Source of the DNA: Polyangia bacterium
GTDB taxonomy: Bacteria; Myxococcota_A; Polyangia; Fen-1088
DNA: 64,000 nucleotides
Assembly: GCA_036268875.1 (NCBI GenBank)
Contig: DATATI010000034.1
Coordinates: 25,875 to 89,874 of the forward strand
Reading direction: 5' to 3'
Position numbers and translations under genes: made by a program. The stretch's first letter is position 1; each line of letters begins with the position of its first letter. This document shows positions 16,497-26,878 of the stretch, piece by piece. The notes beneath the pieces were generated by a model, which was not told where the DNA came from, ran no database searches, and saw nothing but the letters and a program-made list of their open reading frames with translations.

Positions 16497-17969
16497 CTAG
16501 GGAGACGCTTTTTCCGTCTCGTCCATCAGCCGCGCGGCATCGTCCAGGAACAGGCCGGCAGGAAAATCGCTGAGATACTGTCGCAAAGCGTCCGCCGCCC
16601 CAGCGTCGCCGAGGGTCTTGAGGCAGGCCGCCCGCCCAAAAGATGCCCGGTCAATCAGCTCGGCACGCCGTGAGGTTCGTTGCGTCAGCTCATACGAGCG
16701 GATCGCCGACTGGCAATCGCCGGCTGCGCGCTGCAGGTCGCCGGCAATCCGGGCGATCTCGTCCCGCCGTTCGCTGTCGGGATGATCGCGGAGAAACCGA
16801 TTGGCCTCGGCAAGTGCGCCCGGACTGTCACCCAGGCGCACCAAGGTTTCAACAATGGATACGTCGGCCTCGACGCGCAAAATGCCGTTCGCATTCGCGT
16901 CGCGGTAACGCCGCCAGGCGGCCACCGCGGCTTCCGGCTGGCGCAAGCGATCACGCAGGATCTTGCCGATCTCATAAGCGGCGTTTTCCGCCGCCGGTCC
17001 GCCGCGGGCCAGGATCTCGCCGTAAAGCTCCAGGCCTCGGCGGACGTCGCCGGCGGCCAGCGCTTCCTCGGCGTCTGCTCCCGGCAAAACCAGCGGCGAC
17101 ACCCGCACGCCGTCGACGGCGGCCGAGGTTGCCGCTGACGACGACGTTTGGGCCATGGCCAGGGCCCGCCGGTGCGCGCGCGACCGCACCCGCACCGCGG
17201 TCAGCGCGCGCATTCGGACCGCCACCGGCGCTGTCGGAGCGGTCGCCACCGGCGCCGGCAGCCCGGCCCACGATTCACCGACCGTCAGGCGCGCCAGGCG
17301 CACGGTGTCTCGCCACACCTCGACGACACCCTCGTCGACGTCCACGCTGACCCGATCGCCGCTGTGCACGCGAAACTTCGTACCCACCACCACCACCCGA
17401 TAGGCCCCCACCACCACCACGAAGTTTTTTCCGGGCGCCTGGTGCGGCACCGAGAAAGCGACGTCGCCTTCGTTCACCGACGGATGCTGCTCGTCGTCCA
17501 GGGACAATGTCGAGCGCGGGCCGACGGACGCGGCCACGCCGCCAGGCAATGCCAGCGCCAACGTCTCGCCGGCGGAGGTCCGCACGGTGGCCGGCCCCAC
17601 CAGCGCGCGCCGCTCCGGCGCGACCGGCGAAGCGACCGCCGGCAACGCGGTGACGACCGCCACCGCCAAGCGCGCCGGATGCGCCACGCCCACCGGCGCC
17701 AGCGCGGCCGGCGTGGGCGCGAGCCCCGGCCAAAACACCGCTGCCAAGACCGCCGCCAGCACCGCGCTGCTGGCCACGCCGCCCACGAACCACCGCCAGC
17801 GCGACGAGCTGCGCGGTCGCAAGACCGGCGACGTCGCTTGCGACAGCTTGCTCCACAGCCGCCGCAAGGCCACATCGTCGCCGGTGCGGGCCTGGGCGTC
17901 GTCCAGCGCGCGGCGCAGTTCGCTCTCCACGGGATCCAGGGATCGGTCCAGCCAGCGCTGGTCGCTCAC
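16497..17969 (-). CDS. anti-sigma factor: N-terminal anti-sigma region, TM, FecR-like domain and C-terminal TPR repeats
   Basis: TM segment (VGGVASSAVLAAVLAAVF), FecR-like beta region (VAFSVPHQAPGKNFVVVVGAYRVVVVGTKFRVH), TPR-like C-terminus; overlaps upstream ECF sigma by 4 nt. Confidence 0.65.
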   Translation of the reverse strand: MSDQRWLDRSLDPVESELRRALDDAQARTGDDVALRRLWSKLSQATSPVLRPRSSSRWRWFVGGVASSAVLAAVLAAVFWPGLAPTPAALAPVGVAHPARLAVAVVTALPAVASPVAPERRALVGPATVRTSAGETLALALPGGVAASVGPRSTLSLDDEQHPSVNEGDVAFSVPHQAPGKNFVVVVGAYRVVVVGTKFRVHSGDRVSVDVDEGVVEVWRDTVRLARLTVGESWAGLPAPVATAPTAPVAVRMRALTAVRVRSRAHRRALAMAQTSSSAATSAAVDGVRVSPLVLPGADAEEALAAGDVRRGLELYGEILARGGPAAENAAYEIGKILRDRLRQPEAAVAAWRRYRDANANGILRVEADVSIVETLVRLGDSPGALAEANRFLRDHPDSERRDEIARIAGDLQRAAGDCQSAIRSYELTQRTSRRAELIDRASFGRAACLKTLGDAGAADALRQYLSDFPAGLFLDDAARLMDETEKASP

Positions 17970-18586
17970 AGTCGCCTCCGCTTCGCTGCCTTCAGCAGCT
18001 GGGCACGCGCGTGATGCAGGCGCGACCAGGCGGTGTTCTCCGGGCAGCCCACCACCCGAGCCACCTCTTCAATGGGTAGGCCTTCCAGCTCGAACAGGAT
18101 CAGCACCAGGCGTTTCTTGGGATCGACCCGTTCAAGCAAGGTGTCCAAGATCTCAAGACGCTCCGTGCGTTCGGACTGGTCGGAGGCGGGCGGCGGCAAC
18201 GGCTCGCGCAGCATCAGCGTCGACAGCAACCGCTGCAGCCGATGGCGCTGGATCAAGCGCGCCGTTCCGCGCGCGGCGATCTTGTAGATCCACGTCGACA
18301 GTTGAGCATCGCCGCGAAAACGCGGCAGGCTGCGATAGACGGCCAAGAACACGTCCTGGCAAGCGTCCTCGCGCTCGCTCGGAACCACGCCCAGCGCGCT
18401 GATGAACCGGTGCACCATGGGGGCGTATCGTTCGTAAAGCTGGCGCCAAGCCCCGTGATCGCCTTGCTGGCAGCGCGCGATCAAAACCCGATCGGACGGT
18501 TCCGGAGAACCGCGCAAAGCGCTGCTGGCGACGCCTGGTGTCCGCAAAAGCTCCCCCGACCTTGAGGTTAGTGTCCGGCGGCCCAA
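17966..18586 (-). CDS. ECF-type sigma-70 factor
   Basis: Region 2 (YRSLPRFRGDAQLSTWIYKIA) and region 4 (LILFELEGLPIEEVARVVGCPENTAWSRLHHAR). Confidence 0.8.
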   Translation of the reverse strand: MGRRTLTSRSGELLRTPGVASSALRGSPEPSDRVLIARCQQGDHGAWRQLYERYAPMVHRFISALGVVPSEREDACQDVFLAVYRSLPRFRGDAQLSTWIYKIAARGTARLIQRHRLQRLLSTLMLREPLPPPASDQSERTERLEILDTLLERVDPKKRLVLILFELEGLPIEEVARVVGCPENTAWSRLHHARAQLLKAAKRRRL

Positions 18587-18592
18587 ATTTCG

Positions 18593-19531
18593 TCAGCGAA
18601 AATAGAATCCTGTTTCAACTCCCACCCTTGCATACGTGCGCGGGGTGCTGACCGCACCGTCGCTGCCGTCGCCCAGGCCGGTCAGCCGATAGGGAACGGC
18701 CAGGCCAATGGCCAGCCCTCCGCGGGCAAAGTAGTCGCCCCCGCGCAACCGATAAGCCAGAGCCGCCTCGACGTTCGGGCTGACGTTGCGGTCGGTGTGC
18801 GCGCTGCCGTCGATGCGGCGGGCGTTCACCAGCAACGCGTCGATGCCCAGGTTCAAGCCAGGCTCAAGTCGGCCCGGACCGGCAGCCAGCGATAGATAGG
18901 TCCCGAGGCGCAGCGGAATCCGGCGCAGCGTGGCCCGCCCGTTCGGCCAACGTCCTTCGGCCAGCGGCGCGATGCCCACCGTCAGCGACGCACCGGCGCC
19001 ACGGTCGCGGGCGGCGCGCTGTAGATCGATCCCAACCAGGGCCTCGAAGCCTTCCAGCGCGTCGCCGGCGGATCGCCAGGCGGCGCCGCCCACCAGCGCG
19101 GCGTCGGTCGTCGGTTCAGGCGGCGCCGGCGGGGGAGGCGGCGCGGCCGGAACCGCCGGCGGGGGGGGCGCGGGCGGACGCGCCGCCACCGATTCGTCCA
19201 GCTCGGCCACGTACCGGTCGACGATAAAGGCCACCGTGTCGGCCAGGGCCACGCAGTCGGCCCGGTGGCCCTCGGCAGCAGGCAGAACCCGACGCAGTAG
19301 CACCTGGCCGCCGGCATCGCGCAACTCGACCTGCAACACCGGCGGACCGGGCGGCGAGGAACGCGCTTGCAGCAGCAGCCGCAGCGCGCCCGGATCGGCC
19401 GACGGCGCCGCCGACGCCGAAACGCCGGTCAAACGCGCGGCGATCGCTTGTACCACCTCGACCACCGACGGACAGTCACCGCGTCCGTCGCCAGACACGG
19501 TGATGGCCGCCGCATGAATGATCAGCAACAC
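18593..19531 (-). CDS. hypothetical protein (possibly outer-membrane beta-rich C-terminus)
   Basis: ORF tightly packed between aminotransferase and ECF sigma genes on same strand; no recognisable motif. Confidence 0.4.
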   Translation of the reverse strand: MLLIIHAAAITVSGDGRGDCPSVVEVVQAIAARLTGVSASAAPSADPGALRLLLQARSSPPGPPVLQVELRDAGGQVLLRRVLPAAEGHRADCVALADTVAFIVDRYVAELDESVAARPPAPPPPAVPAAPPPPPAPPEPTTDAALVGGAAWRSAGDALEGFEALVGIDLQRAARDRGAGASLTVGIAPLAEGRWPNGRATLRRIPLRLGTYLSLAAGPGRLEPGLNLGIDALLVNARRIDGSAHTDRNVSPNVEAALAYRLRGGDYFARGGLAIGLAVPYRLTGLGDGSDGAVSTPRTYARVGVETGFYFR

Positions 19532-19547
19532 CGGCGACAGCAGGCGA

Positions 19548-20810
19548 CTAGCTTCCTTCCATCAAGCCGCTGCAGCGATCCACCACCCGCGCCATCGCCT
19601 CGGCGAAGATCGACGGCGGGGGCAGAAGGCTCACCACCAAGAACGCGCCCGGTCCCGGCAGGTCGAAGAAATAACCGGGCTGCACCAGCACGCCGTCGCG
19701 CTGTAGCAGCGTGACCGCCCACTCTGCATCAGTCATCACGGCGGGGACGCGAAGAATGGCCGACCAGCCGGCCTCGGCCGGCAGCAACGTGCAAGGAGAT
19801 GACGACGGCAGCAGCGCCTGCAACCGGGCGCGGTTGGCCGCCACGCGAGCCGTGATGGCCGCGCGAATGGTGCCACCCAGAGCCAACAAATCCGGTGCCG
19901 CCAGCTGGACCGGCGTTGCCACGGAAAGATAGGTGTCGGCGATCAGCTCCAGCCGCCCCAGCGCCATCGCGACATCGGATGGTGATCCGCCGGCCACGAT
20001 CCAGCCGAGCTTGATCTGCGGCAAGCCGCACGACTTGGAGAGGCCGCCCAGGCTGAACGTCAACACCGGCGCAGCGCCGGCAGCCGCGGCCGCGGCGGCG
20101 CAGGCCACGGCGTCGCCGGGCCGGGCCCCGAAGGGAAAATCGGCGAACACCTCGTCGGCGATCAAGGCCATGCCGCCGCGCGCACAGAGCGTGGCCAGCC
20201 GGCGGCGCTCGTCGGCCTTGAGGAATGATCCGGTCGGGTTGTTCGGGCTGACCACGATCAGCGCGGGCGTCCTTTGGCCGGCGGCGCGGGCGGCTGCCAG
20301 CGCCGCGTCGATCGACGCAAAGTCGATATGCCAGACACCGTCGTAAGCCAGGCGATAGGCGATGGGTTGCACGCCTTCCAGGCGCGCCAGATAGTCGAAC
20401 AGCGGATAGCCGGGCTCGGGAATGAGAACGGCGTCGCCGGGATCGCACAGCAGCTTGAACAGCAGTGCATACGATTCGCTGCTGCTGGCGGTGAGCAGCA
20501 GGCGATCGGGATCGACGGTACATCCGCGCCGGGCATAGTCGGCGGCGACCGCGGCGCGCGCCGACGGCAACCCGCGCGGCGCCGGCGCATAGGTGGCCAC
20601 CTCGGGCGGCGCCAGCGCCTCGCGCAGCGCCGCCACCGGATACGGCAGGTCGACGGTGGTGGGATTGGACACCGTCAGATCAAGGACCGCGCCGCCGGCC
20701 TGATGGCGGGCCGTCTCGGCCGCGGCGAGGGCGTTTTCTGGGCGATCCCAGGGCAGACGACGCGAAAACACCGGGCGCAGGTTACCACCGGTGGCGCTTG
20801 TCCCGGCCAT
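19548..20810 (-). CDS. PLP-dependent aminotransferase, class I/II fold
   Basis: 420 aa; aminotransferase class-I pattern (NPTGSFL, LIADEVF..., SKSCGLPQ with PLP-Lys). Confidence 0.8.
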   Translation of the reverse strand: MAGTSATGGNLRPVFSRRLPWDRPENALAAAETARHQAGGAVLDLTVSNPTTVDLPYPVAALREALAPPEVATYAPAPRGLPSARAAVAADYARRGCTVDPDRLLLTASSSESYALLFKLLCDPGDAVLIPEPGYPLFDYLARLEGVQPIAYRLAYDGVWHIDFASIDAALAAARAAGQRTPALIVVSPNNPTGSFLKADERRRLATLCARGGMALIADEVFADFPFGARPGDAVACAAAAAAAGAAPVLTFSLGGLSKSCGLPQIKLGWIVAGGSPSDVAMALGRLELIADTYLSVATPVQLAAPDLLALGGTIRAAITARVAANRARLQALLPSSSPCTLLPAEAGWSAILRVPAVMTDAEWAVTLLQRDGVLVQPGYFFDLPGPGAFLVVSLLPPPSIFAEAMARVVDRCSGLMEGS

Positions 20811-20869
20811 CGGTTCAGGCGGCAGGCGTACTCGCGGCGACGGTCGGGTTGCCGTACAATGGAGCGTTC

Positions 20870-21565
20870 ATGGGTCTGGATCTGCGCGATCTGCTGAGAG
20901 GAGACATCCGCCTGCACCCCCGGGTGGTACAGCAATCGCTGTTCGGAAAGCCCGAGGATCGCCAGCGCCTGGCCTCGGCGTTGCCCCCGCTGGTGCCGTT
21001 CGGCAACGCCCAGTACGCGGGGGCCGATTGGATCTTGGACTGGGACCATCGACTGCCCTCTCGGCAGGCGGTCCTCCGGCTGTTCGCTTTTTACTCGGCC
21101 GAGCGGCGCAAAGAATTTCTCGACGGACACGAGGCCCGCCAGCGCGAGATCGCCAGCCAGGATCTGTTTCCCGAGTTCGACGTCCCCGACTTCGTCAAGT
21201 TGCCGGCGGACGAGGTCTACGAGACCGAGATGGATTTGAAGGGCAGCCCGGCGCGCCTGCGCCTGGTCAGCGAGTGGCGGCGCGAGATTGATCCTGGGCA
21301 AGGCAACCGCGCGGTGGAGATCGTCCGCAACTCGGAGCCGTTCAAGACGCTGAAGGCGCAGGCGAAGATCCGCGCGCCCGGATTGGGCGAGCTGGAGCCG
21401 GCCGAATGGTCGCCGCCGTGCGAGAGTGGCCACGTGCGCTGGGGCATCGACGTCTGGTATCTGCTGACGTTCAACGGCATGGTCGGCGAAGGGCGGGCGT
21501 TCCTGGTCGATCTCGAGGATCGTTCGGTGGTGCGCGAACGCGATTTTCAATTTCGCGCCGGCTAG
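20870..21565 (+). CDS. hypothetical protein
   Basis: ORF divergent from aminotransferase; start set at MGLDLRD; no recognisable domain. Confidence 0.4.
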   Translation: MGLDLRDLLRGDIRLHPRVVQQSLFGKPEDRQRLASALPPLVPFGNAQYAGADWILDWDHRLPSRQAVLRLFAFYSAERRKEFLDGHEARQREIASQDLFPEFDVPDFVKLPADEVYETEMDLKGSPARLRLVSEWRREIDPGQGNRAVEIVRNSEPFKTLKAQAKIRAPGLGELEPAEWSPPCESGHVRWGIDVWYLLTFNGMVGEGRAFLVDLEDRSVVRERDFQFRAG

Positions 21566-21572
21566 CGGCCGT

Positions 21573-22409
21573 TCAGGCAGCCAGAAGACCGTCGGCCAGC
21601 CATTGCCCGAGCCAGGTCGAGCCAAGGCGGGCGGCGTCCTCGGCGTCGCGCGTCTGGCTCAGGCGTTCGCAGAGAACACCGAAGGAAAGACCAGGCTGGA
21701 TCAAACGGATCGCCTCCTCCTCGGCGGCGTCGACCAGGCGGTGATAGACGGTGGTCTCGCGGCGCCAGACCAAGAAGGTGGCCGGTTGTTGGCGGACCAG
21801 CGCCTGCGGCGGCAGCGGCGCGGCGGCCAGCACCGCGGACCAGACGTCATCGATGGCGTGCACGGAGGGAACCAGCTCGTGCGCGGCGATCGGTTGCAGG
21901 ATCAGGGTGGCGAAGGCCTCGGGCGGCAACGTTTGAAGCTGCTGCCGCGTCAGCGGTGATTGATCGACGCGGTCAAAGACGTCGAGACGCGCCCATTCCA
22001 GCGCCGCCAGCTCGCCCAGCCAAGGACGATCGCCGGCCAGGGAATGCCCAGCGGCGAAAAGCGGCAAGTACCGGCCCACCTCGCGCAGCGATGGATGACG
22101 AGACCGGTGCGCCAACAGATAGTCGGTGATGAGATTGTGAAAGCCGGTCTCGTCCAGCGCCGCCGACGTGGCCGGAAAGTACTGCGCCAGCGTGTCGCGG
22201 ATTCGGTAGAAGTACATGTTGGCGTAGATATCCAGGCGCTCGACGGCGGAGGCGCGGTGGTCACCTTGAATGATCGCCGCCAATTGCTCGGCGCTGGCGC
22301 CGTCAGCGGCGAGGCCAGCGGCCACCCCTTCCGGCGCAGTGATCAGCGAGAAGAACTGCCGTTCGATCGCGGCCAGCATCGGCCGATCGGGCGCGTCACC
22401 CCGCCGCAT
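21573..22409 (-). CDS. DUF2063 (putative DNA-binding domain) protein, MNIO partner (BufC/MbnC-like)
   Basis: YFYRIRDTLAQYFP...FHNLITDYLLAHRS...REVGRYLPLF typical of DUF2063; 14-nt overlap with upstream DUF692 gene (alternative ATG at 22379). Confidence 0.75.
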   Translation of the reverse strand: MRRGDAPDRPMLAAIERQFFSLITAPEGVAAGLAADGASAEQLAAIIQGDHRASAVERLDIYANMYFYRIRDTLAQYFPATSAALDETGFHNLITDYLLAHRSRHPSLREVGRYLPLFAAGHSLAGDRPWLGELAALEWARLDVFDRVDQSPLTRQQLQTLPPEAFATLILQPIAAHELVPSVHAIDDVWSAVLAAAPLPPQALVRQQPATFLVWRRETTVYHRLVDAAEEEAIRLIQPGLSFGVLCERLSQTRDAEDAARLGSTWLGQWLADGLLAA

Positions 22410-23274
22410 GACTGACCGCTGGCGCGACCAGCAACGCCGCTCCGTTCGGCGCGGCTAGCAGCGCCGTTTCGATGCCAGCGGCGCGCCGCGATTCCTCCAC
22501 CACACGTTCGAGTGGCGGGATGTGATCGTCCCATTCGATCAGCGTCGACACCCGCCCGAACCGCCGCAGCGCCTGCCGGTAGAGGTCCCAGACGCCGTCG
22601 CAAACCGGGTGATCGTGGGTGTCCAGCAGCAGCTCGCCCGCCGTGCTGTGCCCAGCCAGATGAATCTGTCCCACCCGAGCAAGAGGAATTCCGGCGATGA
22701 ACGCCGCCGGATCGAAACCGTGGTTGTGGGCACTGACAAAGATGTTGTTCACGTCCAAAAGAACGCCGCAGTCGGCGCGCTGACAAAGCGCCGCCAAAAA
22801 CTCCCATTCGGTCATGGCCGACTGACAAAAGCTGACGTAGCTGGAGACGTTTTCCACCAGGATCCGTCTTTTGAGTCGATCCTGCACCCGCTGTACGCGC
22901 TCGGCGACGTGGTGCAAAGCCTCTTCAGTGTAAGGCAGAGGCAAAAGGTCGTGGGCGTAGTGCCCGCCCAGACTGCCCCAGCACAAATGATCGGAGATCA
23001 GCTCCGGTTGCACCTCAGCTGCCAGGTCTGCCAGCCCGTTCAAATAATCGCCGTTGATTGGGTCAACCGACCCCAGTGACAGCGAAACCCCGTGCATCAC
23101 CACCGGCGACCGCCCGCGAATTTCTCGCAACACCCGCCGCGGATTTCCCCCCGCCACCAGGAAATTGTCAGAAATAACTTCAAACCAATCCACCACCGGC
23201 GGCTGTTCCAGCACCGCCTGGTAATGCTCTGTGCGCAACCCAATCCCGTGTCCCAAATAAGGAAACAAATTCAT
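22396..23274 (-). CDS. DUF692 family multinuclear non-heme iron oxidase (MNIO; MbnB/BufB-like)
   Basis: MNLFPYLGHGIGLR..., VVMHGVSLSLGS, TIM-barrel (xylose-isomerase-like) pattern of DUF692; ATG 23274 with AGAGGGA RBS preferred over track GTG at 23313. Confidence 0.85.
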   Translation of the reverse strand: MNLFPYLGHGIGLRTEHYQAVLEQPPVVDWFEVISDNFLVAGGNPRRVLREIRGRSPVVMHGVSLSLGSVDPINGDYLNGLADLAAEVQPELISDHLCWGSLGGHYAHDLLPLPYTEEALHHVAERVQRVQDRLKRRILVENVSSYVSFCQSAMTEWEFLAALCQRADCGVLLDVNNIFVSAHNHGFDPAAFIAGIPLARVGQIHLAGHSTAGELLLDTHDHPVCDGVWDLYRQALRRFGRVSTLIEWDDHIPPLERVVEESRRAAGIETALLAAPNGAALLVAPAVSHAAG

Positions 23275-23290
23275 TCCCTCTTTAGGCCGA

Positions 23291-23333
23291 CTATTTTCAC
23301 CAATGACATCCACTTATTCATCCAATGACATCC
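23291..23333 (-). promoter_or_regulatory. 22-bp tandem direct repeat (2 units, core GGATGTCATTGG) upstream of MNIO start; candidate regulator binding site / internal promoter
   Basis: ccaatgacatcc occurs twice 22 nt apart on plus strand in an AT-richer patch 17-60 nt upstream of ATG 23274. Confidence 0.4.
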
Positions 23334-23412
23334 GATTGCCGCGCCTCAATTCCCATCCAGGAGGCCGAGCTCCGCTCGGCCGGCCCACCTTGCGCGAGGC
23401 GTTGGGTGGGCC

Positions 23413-23436
23413 CGCGGGAGGGCGAGCCCTCCCGCG
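23413..23436 (-). terminator. stable GC hairpin (11-bp stem) between precursor and MNIO genes; candidate attenuator / partial terminator
   Basis: cgcgggagggc-ga-gccctcccgcg perfect inverted repeat 12 nt 3' of precursor stop. Confidence 0.4.
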
Positions 23437-23447
23437 TAGCGAGCCCG

Positions 23448-23702
23448 TTATTTCGCCGCCGCGACTTTCCCGCCCTTGTCCTTGCACTCTTTGTCGCTCA
23501 TCTCCACCCAACCCTTGCCTTTGCAGCCGTTCTTGCCGGCGCAAGAATTGGCGGACGAATGGCAGCCACCTTTGCCCTTGCAAGCGTTGACACCCTCACA
23601 ATGCACCTTGCCGCCCTCGGCGGCGCTGGCGATGACAGGCGCCGCGGTGGCGAACAATCCGGCGGCAAGAGCGACAACCAAGGTACCTTTCGTGCTGATC
23701 AT
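23448..23702 (-). CDS. RiPP precursor: Sec-signal, six-Cys bufferin-like peptide (BUF_6/12Cys-like)
   Basis: 84 aa; signal peptide MISTKGTLVVALAAGLFATAAPVIASA|AE; core HCEGVNACKGKGGCHSSANSCAGKNGCKGKGWVEMSDKECKDKGG with repeated CxGxN(A/G)CKGKG; GGAGA RBS; first gene of MNIO cassette. Confidence 0.8.
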   Translation of the reverse strand: MISTKGTLVVALAAGLFATAAPVIASAAEGGKVHCEGVNACKGKGGCHSSANSCAGKNGCKGKGWVEMSDKECKDKGGKVAAAK

Positions 23703-23746
23703 TGATTCTCTCCTTTGGGGATTTTCTCAGGTGTTCGGCTATTGCT

Positions 23747-23772
23747 ACGCCGAAACCGGGAGCCCGTTACGA
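23747..23772 (-). promoter_or_regulatory. candidate ECF-sigma-type promoter (GTAAC-N16-CGTA) upstream of precursor gene
   Basis: Minus-strand reading cGTAACgggctcccggtttcggCGTAgc about 45-70 nt upstream of start; by analogy with my recollection of the Caulobacter SigF -35 GTAACC motif; weak. Confidence 0.2.
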
Positions 23773-23905
23773 TAAACCTCCGTCATAAACAGCGCCAACC
23801 CCAATGACGACCTGCAATATTTCGCTTTCCGCTACCAAATCTGAAACATGGCGTAAGATTACGGCAGGAATCGTTGCCCGCGGGTCACTAACCGCAGGAG
23901 TCAAC

Positions 23906-25132
23906 ATGCGAAGCTTTCGCGCAGTTCCTGGCTTCCTAGGCCTGATAGTTTTGGCCGTTGGGTGCAACTCCCCGGAGGGGTTTCACGGCATCGGTGCGGA
24001 CGGTGGCGCACCCACCGGCAGCGGCGGCATCGGCGTTGGCGCCGGCACCGGCGGCGATGACGGCACCGGTGGACTGGGCGGCAGCGGCGGATTGTTCGGC
24101 AGCGGCGGCACGGGCGGCGGCGGCACGGGCGGCAGCGGCACCGGCGGCGCTGGCGGCGACGGATCGGGCGGCGGCGGCGTCGACGCTCCGATGGACGTCT
24201 CCATCGACCAGAGGGCGGACGCCGGCGCGGATGCGCCCGCGATCAGCGACGCGCGCGACACCGCCGCCGACAGCGGATCGCAGGTGCTGACCTTCCAGAA
24301 CTATTGCTTGCGCGCGCACTGGACCGCCACCGCGTCGCTGCAGCCGGACCTGGCCATCAACGCCATCGACGGCGATGCCGTCACCATGTGGGCGACGGCG
24401 GCGCCGCAGACACCGAACGAGTATTTGCAGGTCGATCTCGGCGGGCCGACCCGCCTGACCCAGATCGTCCTCGACAACAGCGCCGGCAATCAGACCGACT
24501 ACCCGCGGGCGTACACCGTCGTGGGCTCCGCCGACGGCAATTCGTTTCCCACCACGATGGCCAGCGTCGGTCAAACACCGGCCGGCGCGCTCACCACCAT
24601 CAGCTTCAACGCGGTCACGGTGCGCGCCTTCCGCATCATCCAAGCCAACTCTGACCCGACGTTCTGGTGGACGGTGCACGAGCTGCGCCTCGGCTGCCAG
24701 CCTGCCACCGCGCCACCGGCCGGTGCCTTCGATCCGTTCGATCCCAGCCAGTGGATCGTGACCGCGTCGTCCAACGTGGGCGGAGAAGGGCCGAGCAATG
24801 CCATCGACGGAGACTTCACCACGCGCTGGACGTCTGGTGCGCACCAGCAGGGCAGCGAGTATTTCATGGTGGACATGGGCGCACCGACCACCATCAGCCA
24901 GGTGTGGATGACCACCCGTCAAAGCCCGAATGATTTTGCCACTCAGTACGCGCTGGACGTGTCGACCAACGGCACCACGTTCTCCACCGTGGCCACGGGC
25001 GCCGGCGCCATCGTCACCAAGATCGTCGTTTCGCCAGTCAAGGCGCGCTATGTGAAGATCCGCCAGACCGGCCAGACGGACCCCAACATCGGCAGCTGGT
25101 GGTCGTTCGACGAGCTGACCATTCGCCCGTGA
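23906..25132 (+). CDS. lipoprotein with Gly-rich linker and two F5/8 type C (discoidin) domains
   Basis: Signal + lipobox (LAVGCNSP), GTGG linker, duplicated discoidin-like modules (HWTATAS...NAIDGD..TMW and NAIDGDFTTRWTSG); start at MRSF. Confidence 0.7.
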   Translation: MRSFRAVPGFLGLIVLAVGCNSPEGFHGIGADGGAPTGSGGIGVGAGTGGDDGTGGLGGSGGLFGSGGTGGGGTGGSGTGGAGGDGSGGGGVDAPMDVSIDQRADAGADAPAISDARDTAADSGSQVLTFQNYCLRAHWTATASLQPDLAINAIDGDAVTMWATAAPQTPNEYLQVDLGGPTRLTQIVLDNSAGNQTDYPRAYTVVGSADGNSFPTTMASVGQTPAGALTTISFNAVTVRAFRIIQANSDPTFWWTVHELRLGCQPATAPPAGAFDPFDPSQWIVTASSNVGGEGPSNAIDGDFTTRWTSGAHQQGSEYFMVDMGAPTTISQVWMTTRQSPNDFATQYALDVSTNGTTFSTVATGAGAIVTKIVVSPVKARYVKIRQTGQTDPNIGSWWSFDELTIRP

Positions 25133-25156: not shown

Positions 25157-25588
25157 TCAGCGGCTCCAGCCGCGTTCGTTCTTGAACAGGTGCGCCAGCG
25201 CCTGGCTGAGGCCGTCCAGGCCCGGCTTGAAGAACACCGGCGCGTCGATGCTGACGCCGATCATCGTGTCGTTCGACGACGTCACGCCAAAGCGAGCGAT
25301 GTCGCGATCGACCTCGCTTCGGCGGAGCGCGCGCAAGACGCGTTCGCCGGAACGGTTGGCCATGTCCAGATCGCCGATGATCAAGCCTGGTCGCTCCTCG
25401 TGAAGGGCCGTGGTCACTTCCGTTTCGGTCTTGGCGCAACGAACGCCATAGCCTTCCTCGATGGCCAATTCCATCAGGAAGTCACGCAATTCAGGATCGT
25501 CGCTGACGACCAGGACGGAGGCAGGAACCCTCCCGGTCGGCGGCGCCGGTGTTCCTCCGGTCGGCAAGAGCGTCACCAGCATCTCCAA
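25157..25588 (-). CDS. single-domain response regulator (receiver)
   Basis: SVLVVSDDPELRDFL...GLIIGDLDMANRSG...FFKPGLD receiver pattern; true start probably internal. Confidence 0.65.
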   Translation of the reverse strand: MEMLVTLLPTGGTPAPPTGRVPASVLVVSDDPELRDFLMELAIEEGYGVRCAKTETEVTTALHEERPGLIIGDLDMANRSGERVLRALRRSEVDRDIARFGVTSSNDTMIGVSIDAPVFFKPGLDGLSQALAHLFKNERGWSR

Positions 25589-25711
25589 TCAGGATAGCGG
25601 CCTTATGTTTCAGGCTTTTTTCCGCGGCGCCACTATTGGGTAAAATCTTTGGGATTGCCCGGGGCCTCCTCCACCCTTGCGGACCCGCGGGGCTGCGGCA
25701 ACAATCCCTCC

Positions 25712-26878
25712 ATGAAAAGAACCTTACTGACCCTGGCGGCAGTTTTTCTGGTCGGCTGCGGCGATAAATCGCCGGGCATCCAGGACAGCGGCACGCCCGG
25801 CACGGGCGACGACGCCAGCGCGACCGGCGATGGCAGCCCCACCGACGATGGCGGCGATGTCAGCCTGGCCGGCGATTCGGCGTTTCCTTTCGACACCGCG
25901 CCGGGCATGCCCCTCGATGTACCGGCCGGCCAGTGGACCTGGGTCGACTTCCCCGATTCGACCTGCGACGAGGGCTCGCCGACCGGGATCGCCGTCAGCC
26001 CCGGCGACGCCGGCAAGCTGCTGATCTTCTTCGAAGGCGGCGGCGCCTGCTGGGACGCGCTGACCTGTTTCGGGCTGAACACGGCGGTGCACGGACCGTT
26101 CGGCCAGGCGCAGTGGGCCGCTCAAGCTGCGACCATCACAACGTCCAGCATTCTGGATCGCACCCTGGCCGGCAATCCCTTCGCCGGATACGGGCTGGTG
26201 TTCGTACCCTACTGCACGGGCGATTTACACGCCGGCAACAACGTCGCCACCTACGACGTGGCTGGCCAGGCCACGCCGTATCACCATCAAGGCGCAGCCA
26301 ACGTGGCGGCGTACCTGGCCCGCATCGCGCCCACCTGGGCCAACGCCACCGACGTGGTGATCAGCGGCAGCAGCGCCGGTGGTTTCGGCGCGCTGATGAA
26401 CTACGAACCGATCCGCGCCCACTTTCCTAGCGCCAAGATGATCATGATCGACGATTCCGGTCCGCCGTTGGCGGGCACGTCGATCCCGGCCAGCGAACGG
26501 ATGGCCTGGTACGCGCAGTGGCATGTCGGCGATCTCATCGATCCGCAGTGCGCGGACTGCAAGGACGACGTGTCCCACTTACCGGCCGCCGTGGCGGCGA
26601 AATATCCGAATGATCGAATGGCCCTGCTGTCGTCGCTGCAGGATCAGACCATCCGAACCTATTTCATGCTGACGGCGGACGGGATGCAGGCGGCGTTGCA
26701 GTCGCTGAAGACGGACCAGCTGGATCCGCTGCCCAACTTTCACACCTTCTTCGTCTCCGGCCAGACGCACACGATGCTGGGCAACCCTGGCAGCTTCATG
26801 GTCGGCGGCACATCGCTTTTGTCCTGGCTCGGGCAGATGGCCAGCGGTGATGCCGCCTGGATGTCCGTCGGTCCGTAA
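25712..26878 (+). CDS. secreted lipoprotein, pectin acetylesterase / Notum-like alpha/beta hydrolase family
   Basis: Lipobox LVGCGD; PAE-family landmarks FFEGGGACWDALTC, YCTGDLHAG, SGSSAGGFGA (nucleophile Ser); start at MKRTLL. Confidence 0.55.
   Translation: MKRTLLTLAAVFLVGCGDKSPGIQDSGTPGTGDDASATGDGSPTDDGGDVSLAGDSAFPFDTAPGMPLDVPAGQWTWVDFPDSTCDEGSPTGIAVSPGDAGKLLIFFEGGGACWDALTCFGLNTAVHGPFGQAQWAAQAATITTSSILDRTLAGNPFAGYGLVFVPYCTGDLHAGNNVATYDVAGQATPYHHQGAANVAAYLARIAPTWANATDVVISGSSAGGFGALMNYEPIRAHFPSAKMIMIDDSGPPLAGTSIPASERMAWYAQWHVGDLIDPQCADCKDDVSHLPAAVAAKYPNDRMALLSSLQDQTIRTYFMLTADGMQAALQSLKTDQLDPLPNFHTFFVSGQTHTMLGNPGSFMVGGTSLLSWLGQMASGDAAWMSVGP

Follow-up and report, generated by a model that had tools for sequence, protein, structure and literature searches.

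A probable Buf2-type bufferin (captophorin) operon, bufA2-bufB-bufC, in a Polyangia bacterium (Myxococcota), and its proposed mechanism

The stretch of DNA analyzed here (the window) spans 64 kb of contig DATATI010000034.1 from a soil Polyangia bacterium (Myxococcota), and the genes in question form a co-directional trio on its minus strand, between positions 21573 and 23702. In the list of open reading frames (ORFs), a small precursor peptide comes first (bufA2, 23448-23702, 84 residues), followed by an MNIO enzyme of the family formerly called DUF692 (bufB, 22396-23274, 292 residues), and then by a DUF2063 or PME1-type partner protein (bufC, 21573-22409, 278 or 268 residues). A structured spacer of 173 nucleotides (nt) separates bufA from bufB (23275-23447), and a candidate promoter of the SigF type, recognized by its motif GTAAC-N16-CGTA and attributable to an extracytoplasmic function (ECF) sigma factor, lies upstream of bufA (23746-23770, minus strand). 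Below we argue that the trio is a bufferin-2 (Buf2) operon, dedicated to a peptide made on ribosomes and modified after translation (RiPP) that would buffer copper.

All three reading frames are intact and each has a good ribosome-binding site. The ATG of bufA is preceded by the Shine-Dalgarno sequence AAAGGAG. The mechanical ORF of bufB (22396-23313) reaches a GTG at 23313, and translation probably starts from the ATG at 23274, which follows AGAGGGA; this start gives 292 residues, the length also obtained in an independent gene call by the Joint Genome Institute (JGI). That call, made on an identical contig of 57.6 kb from metagenome sample 3300036818, delimits the same three genes, at 84, 292 and 268 residues. 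The length of BufC depends on the choice of start: the first ATG gives 278 residues and overlaps bufB by 14 nt, and the second ATG (22379), preferred by JGI, gives 268 residues and leaves a gap of 16 nt. A preliminary description of the locus had reported three tightly packed, co-directional minus-strand genes, the DUF2063 gene overlapping the stop of the MNIO gene. The three ORFs are all where it placed them, and bufB and bufC do adjoin each other; bufA and bufB, however, are held apart by the structured spacer, and the overlap exists only if translation of bufC begins at its first ATG. G+C content at third codon positions (GC3) supports the three frames together with a convergent plus-strand gene of 255 codons (20798-21565) whose end is 7 nt away from the bufC stop. 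Given these supported frames and the convergent gene directly beyond bufC, the operon comprises exactly three genes. Scans for sigma-70 promoters and intrinsic terminators around it returned nothing useful.

The precursor reads MISTKGTLVVALAAGLFATAAPVIASA up to the predicted cleavage site and AEGGKVHCEGVNACKGKGGCHSSANSCAGKNGCKGKGWVEMSDKECKDKGGKVAAAK beyond it, the core opening with AEGG. Residues 1 to 27 (23622-23702) have the makings of a Sec signal in a heuristic reading combined with hydropathy, with Lys5 in the n-region, hydrophobic residues from 6 to 24 and an A-S-A motif followed by A-E at the cut. The N-terminus thus looks like a signal recognized by signal peptidase I, and there is no lipobox Cys in the precursor. 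The core of 57 residues (23451-23621) carries six Cys at core positions 8, 14, 20, 27, 33 and 46 (C35, C41, C47, C54, C60 and C73 of the precursor), and within it two modules of the form C-x-G-x-N-x-C-K-G-K-G can be read, CEGVNACKGKG and CAGKNGCKGKG. The precursor matched the curated NCBIfam equivalog NF050166, Cu_RiPP_BufA2 ('BufA2 family periplasmic bufferin-type metallophore'), at 78.6 bits, above its cutoff of 60 (E=3e-22), over profile positions 4-78 of 79. A Pfam profile search returned no match for the precursor, and hence none to DUF2282; the peptide therefore belongs with Buf2 and not with Buf1. A database search retrieved at least 1415 BufA homologues, and in alignments of 25 and of 44 of them all six Cys were invariant and spaced as C-x5-C-x5-C-x6-C-x5-C-x12-C.

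The second protein is a full-length MNIO. It matched Pfam PF05114 (MbnB_TglH_ChrH) over profile positions 2-261 of 263 (E=3.3e-110) and exceeded the cutoff of the NCBIfam equivalog NF050167, MNIO_BufB ('MNIO family bufferin maturase'), with 381.8 bits against 310 (E=1.4e-114). It fell under the cutoffs of the other NCBIfam models of the family, namely HvfB (259.6 bits against 360), MbnB (60.2 against 325), ApyH and ChrH. Among solved structures, 3BWW is the nearest to it (E=1.8e-47). Nine residues, H61, H96, E141, D174, N177, H205, D218, H220 and E247, were invariant among 80 homologues, a series that we take to be the iron-ligand pattern of MNIOs known from the structures of MbnB and TglH. 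When aligned to 3BWW, the segment E247-W-D-D250 of BufB lies opposite E-R-D-F, so that Asp250 faces a Phe, and Asp occupies this position in 75 of the 80 homologues. According to a 2026 study, the MNIOs of 'Cys-Lys' precursors, BufA2 being an example, have Asp where EGKCG-type enzymes have Phe, the contact of this site with the substrate Lys being modelled (PMC13097082). Since the precursor carries NACKG and NGCKG and the enzyme carries Asp250, enzyme and substrate agree.

The third protein matched Pfam PF09836 (DUF2063) at 58.5 bits, above the cutoff of 27.2 (E=8e-16), and NCBI calls one homologue, 45% identical to it, an 'HvfC/BufC family peptide modification chaperone'. An AlphaFold2 model built from 49 homologues has a mean predicted local distance difference test score (pLDDT) of 95.2 and consists of two domains, the N-terminal one helical and the C-terminal one built of beta-sheet and helix. 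The only significant Foldseek matches of this model were TglI (8hi7_A, E=2e-5) and NgoC/NGO1945 (3dee, E=2.4e-5). TglI is the partner of the MNIO TglH, and NGO1945/NgoC is a DUF2063 partner that has been crystallised. The C-terminal part also resembled TbiB1, a protein with a RiPP recognition element (RRE), at a level short of significance (E about 5), and the model weakly supports an RRE-like character for this domain.

These family memberships, together with the gene order and the conserved residues, define the locus as a Buf2 cluster, an assignment made through the NCBIfam equivalog model of the precursor rather than by pairwise comparison with BufA2 of Caulobacter vibrioides. In that bacterium, the buf1ABCD operon encodes a DUF2282 precursor with four Cys and includes a DoxX gene, and the buf2 operon (CCNA_02999-03001) has no gene like bufD1 and encodes a precursor with a Sec signal and a six-Cys core; both operons are induced by copper and protective against it (PMC11626156). 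A survey of Buf2 counted thousands of members and found six conserved Cys in 90% of the precursors (PMC12452194). The locus shares with C. vibrioides buf2ABC the order precursor-MNIO-DUF2063, the Sec signal, the six Cys and the absence of doxX, and it has a SigF-type promoter-like motif upstream where the Caulobacter operon belongs to the SigF regulon. It differs in belonging to the Myxococcota instead of the Alphaproteobacteria, in a core of 57 residues where the other has 61, and in being known from sequence alone. With Buf1 it shares the MNIO subfamily, the DUF2063 partner and a precursor that would be exported by Sec. Unlike Buf1, it has no DUF2282 match, no DoxX protein (BufD), no adjacent sigma/NrsF genes, and six Cys instead of four. 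In the Buf1 product a disulfide joins the outer Cys, and the central ones are turned into copper-binding 5-thiooxazoles, chemistry that the peptide described here would probably share. Taken together, we put the probability that the locus is a Buf2-type bufferin operon, working by the mechanism proposed below, at about 85%.

The preliminary description had already proposed a bufferin-type RiPP cassette, and the BufA2 and BufB equivalogs, both above cutoff, bear this out; the profile matches whose absence would have spoken against the proposal were found. Its reading of the individual proteins was likewise sound, from the 84-residue precursor with a signal ending ASA before AE (the Lys, the hydrophobic stretch and the A-S-A were seen heuristically) and the 57-residue core with six Cys in two repeated modules to the DUF692/MNIO enzyme and the DUF2063 partner, which PF05114 and PF09836 recovered and which, in the latter case, folds like TglI and NgoC. 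The profile check that it recommended for the precursor gave the BufA2 model above cutoff and no match to DUF2282. What did not survive is its claim of novelty, which listed three departures from the canonical operon. DoxX is indeed absent, since tblastn searches with DoxX proteins from related loci found no homologue in the whole 64 kb, yet buf2 of C. vibrioides is also without a bufD1-like gene (PMC11626156). The doubled Cys module is no departure either, as the BufA2 core of C. vibrioides also has six Cys (PMC11626156), like 90% of Buf2 precursors (PMC12452194). Finally, the myxobacterial setting is common: dozens of assemblies from Polyangia and Myxococcales have the A-B-C cluster, as does Minicystis rosea, a myxobacterium in culture. 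Because these three features are normal for Buf2, the locus is a typical member of that family.

Two other classes of MNIO-modified peptides deserve comparison. The EGKCG captophorins (oxazolin HvfABC, fontiphorin FonABC and gonophorin NgoABC) have the same pairing of an MNIO with PME1 (DUF2063-RRE) and 5-thiooxazole chemistry, which here is presumed, and the BufC model and BufB match NgoC (3dee) and 3BWW, respectively. In contrast, the precursor described here lacks EGKCG repeats, the scores of its enzymes on the HvfB and HvfC models lie below cutoff, and the Lys-Cys-type enzymes have Phe (E-R-D-F) where BufB has Asp (E-W-D-D). In methanobactin (MbnABC), too, an enzyme of the MNIO family modifies Cys of a ribosomal peptide to yield a copper-binding product. 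That system however relies on the partner MbnC, an oxazolone-thioamide and a leader peptide in place of the DUF2063 protein and Sec signal found here, serves copper acquisition and not detoxification, and has an enzyme whose model gives BufB only the 60.2 bits mentioned above. These differences bear on whether BufB might make oxazolone-thioamide pairs as in methanobactin instead of 5-thiooxazoles. The two structures are isomeric and have been confused in the literature, and oxazolin was first described with oxazolone-thioamides (PMC11252979). Oxazolin has since been reassigned to the 5-thiooxazole, however, and selective labelling confirmed 5-thiooxazole in bufferins. With a DUF2063/PME1 partner rather than MbnC and an MbnB score far under the cutoff of 325, the methanobactin-like outcome is highly improbable for this enzyme. 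Later work confirmed the 5-thiooxazole in bufferins and their relatives and proposed the class name captophorins.

By analogy with characterized bufferins, the chemistry, export and copper binding of the Buf2 operon would then be as follows. Transcription would begin some 40 nt ahead of bufA, at the putative ECF-type promoter, and the stack of hairpins that follows bufA would probably hold the precursor mRNA above that of the enzymes. In the cytoplasm, BufC may use its RRE-like C-terminal domain to dock the precursor and present it to the iron-dependent oxidase BufB, which would turn the four central Cys (C41, C47, C54 and C60) into 5-thiooxazoles with a loss of 4.03 Da each. This expectation follows C. 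vibrioides Buf2, in which each central Cys shows a shift of -4.03 Da and CysI and CysVI stay unmodified, probably as a disulfide (PMC11626156). The modified peptide would be exported by Sec, with signal peptidase I predicted to cut after A-S-A27, and a disulfide between C35 and C73 would close a small folded domain. The resulting lysine-rich peptide of roughly 5.6 kDa would sequester periplasmic copper and so buffer copper stress. For the core after cleavage at Ala27, the calculated monoisotopic mass in the reduced, unmodified state is 5650.62 Da; four thiooxazoles together with the C35-C73 disulfide would bring it to roughly 5632.5 Da.

The cluster is widely conserved. We retrieved 80 related loci for comparison (numbered from L001 onward), which span Myxococcota, Binatia, Acidobacteriota, Alphaproteobacteria, Gammaproteobacteria and Minicystis rosea DSM 24000 (L077), and nearly all of them keep the A-B-C order on one strand. 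The nearest genomes are metagenome-assembled genomes of Polyangia and Myxococcales, with BufB identity of up to 93%. Protein identity in the sister genomes (L001-L004) is 85-93% for BufB and 71-87% for BufC, and in further Polyangia relatives (L005-L012) it is about 45-75%. This conservation is relevant to another explanation, in which the cluster is silent or decayed and the small protein is a disulfide-rich secreted miniprotein that the enzymes do not act upon. The literature has not settled the functionality of all such clusters, and bufA and bufB have a G+C content of 0.61 and GC3 of 0.72-0.74, under the GC3 of 0.78-0.83 seen in bufC and all neighboring genes. This low G+C could reflect horizontal acquisition or a constraint on composition. 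The frames are nonetheless intact with good ribosome-binding sites, the catalytic-type residues and the six Cys are conserved, the cluster is kept in both the sister genomes and the Polyangia relatives, and the promoter motif is retained in L001 and L002. We therefore give decay hardly any credence. In a scan of G+C content along the window, the 22-24 kb bin was the lowest, with the 4-6 kb bin a close second.

The motif GTAAC-N16-CGTA ends 43 nt upstream of the bufA ATG and is the sole exact match in the 64 kb. Of the 57 related loci used for counting, 12 have the relaxed form GTAAC-N15-17-CG(T/A)A in the 300 nt upstream of bufA, where the background rate predicts about 0.35. These copies lie at positions 9493 of L001, 3849 of L002, 4259 of L013, 9558 of L014, 2661 of L015, 9641 of L017, 1616 of L021, 9537 of L040, 9368 of L050, 266 of L053, 9448 of L064 and 9453 of L069. 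Among close relatives, only L001 and L002 include the region upstream of bufA, and both retain the motif; L002 keeps both boxes with 6 of the 16 spacer bases changed. Six loci have the motif directly upstream of doxX, either where doxX precedes bufA (L007 at 9057, L010 at 2842, L011 at 22 and L012 at 1473) or where it follows bufC (L013 at 6479 and L015 at 4882). Near-identical copies also stand before the cluster and before a second precursor gene in L029 (181 and 2064) and L030 (2892 and 4875). In Caulobacter, sigmaF drives buf1 and buf2, and its binding sequence, determined by experiment, is GTAACC-N16-CGAA (PMC3511200). We read the motif described here as a candidate ECF promoter of the SigF type, from which transcription would start about 6-8 nt beyond the CGTA, near 23738.

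The window has a single sigma factor (17966-18586), which is of the ECF class and is encoded beside a FecR-type anti-sigma factor, the pair occupying 16497-18586. We considered this pair as regulator of the operon and rejected it: its synteny with the cluster is confined to a narrow lineage, it has no copy of the motif even with one mismatch allowed, and it is not of the NrsF type. For these reasons the link between the nearby ECF sigma factor and the operon was dropped. A cognate SigF/NrsF pair was not found in the window, where tblastn searches for sigma-factor paralogues extended beyond the annotated part. By the 2025 survey, Buf2 clusters contain neither sigma nor anti-sigma genes (PMC12452194), and any regulation would therefore act in trans.

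Several observations weigh against the Buf2 reading and its proposed regulation and should be set beside the evidence above. The structure model of the precursor is of low confidence (pLDDT 62), its layout of strand and helix around CysI and CysVI being weakly suggestive of the published bufferin fold. BufC scored 55.8 bits on the NCBIfam HvfC model, far under the cutoff of 142, so that it represents a divergent subfamily of the partner protein, and a sequence search of it against the PDB gave no match. The putative promoter has CGTA as its -10 element in place of the CGAA of the Caulobacter site and a spacer shorter by 1 nt, and the one sigma factor nearby is, as noted, paired with a FecR-type anti-sigma and without the motif. 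Furthermore, neither copper-handling genes nor a SigF/NrsF pair was seen in the annotated part of the window, about 16.5-29.2 kb, the remainder having been screened by tblastn for DoxX and sigma-factor paralogues only. The lack of copper genes in these annotated flanks also accords with the idea that the product is a 5-thiooxazole peptide with a role other than copper, directed at thiophilic metals (Au, Cd, Cr, Hg) or at oxidants such as hypochlorite. Indeed, the Caulobacter SigF regulon, buf1 and buf2 included, was first described as a response to chromate and cadmium (PMC3511200), and fusions of MerC with bufferins exist, roles with other metals and stresses having been suggested (PMC12452194). 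However, Cu induced the bufA1 and bufA2 reporters of the founding study whereas Fe, Zn and Mn did not, the bufferins protected growth under copper (PMC11626156), and all characterized members of the class bind Cu according to later literature. We consequently regard a role apart from copper as unlikely and retain the copper-buffering Buf2 reading.

The spacer between bufA and bufB folds to -84.2 kcal/mol (z=-3.0 against dinucleotide shuffles) and forms three consecutive G+C-rich hairpins at about 23413-23436, 23382-23412 and 23363-23381 (minus strand). Most related loci have structured spacers of 45-180 nt at the same position, with z typically between -2 and -7, and an Rfam scan of 20500-24500 assigned the hairpins to no known RNA family. 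They may plausibly act as a transcript stabilizer or as a partial attenuator that would set the ratio of precursor to enzyme. The recurrent structured spacer between precursor and enzyme is one of two family-level observations that lend themselves to cheap testing.

The other is the association of the SigF-type motif with bufA2 and with doxX across distant lineages, Myxococcota included. The sister genomes L001-L004 have no doxX gene; L007 and L009-L012 have one upstream of bufA, L013 and L015 have one downstream of bufC, and most other loci lack it; among 40 downstream candidates scanned, DoxX followed bufC in 6. Some relatives have an additional 1-3 kb between bufC and the convergent gene, which encodes proteins unrelated to DoxX. 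As a tentative and somewhat doubtful extension of these patterns, Myxococcota buf2 operons and doxX might each be under a SigF-type ECF promoter of their own, the sigma factor being encoded elsewhere, and doxX might have disappeared entirely from the clade of the window; with four thiooxazoles, the doubled module might hold two copper ions, or a metal different from that of Buf1. If true, this would amount to a bufferin/DoxX stress regulon and a promoter code conserved across phyla.

Among MNIO-modified peptides, Buf2 bufferins rank second in family size; thousands of members are catalogued, the founding example is characterized and curated models exist. The locus itself thus has little discovery value, and its main yield is a clean annotation in which bufA2, bufB and bufC replace the labels 'hypothetical' and 'DNA-binding domain-containing'.

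Several further features surround the operon. Next to bufC, the convergent gene on the plus strand (20798-21565) encodes a conserved hypothetical protein of 255 residues, or 231 as JGI delimits it, that matches neither Pfam nor NCBIfam models. Identity to its Polyangia relatives is 66-93%, and the gene stays beside the aminotransferase gene even where 1-3 kb has been inserted between it and bufC. This aminotransferase gene, annotated as class I/II (19548-20810), is followed on the minus strand by genes annotated for a protein of 312 residues without family match (18593-19531), the ECF sigma factor (17966-18586) and a FecR/TPR anti-sigma factor of 490 residues (16497-17969). The four genes (16497-20810) are co-directional and closely spaced, and in L001-L004 and L007 they keep synteny with bufABC; no functional tie between this run and the bufferin genes was found. 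On the other side, divergent from bufA, a plus-strand gene (23804-25132) encodes a protein that looks secreted and has two F5/8 type C (discoidin) domains besides a long linker rich in Gly. Further out are genes for a response-regulator receiver protein on the minus strand (25157-25588) and for a pectinacetylesterase-like protein on the plus strand (25649-26878). Among the related loci, L029 and L030, both from Myxococcaceae, carry a second bufA-like gene downstream of bufC.

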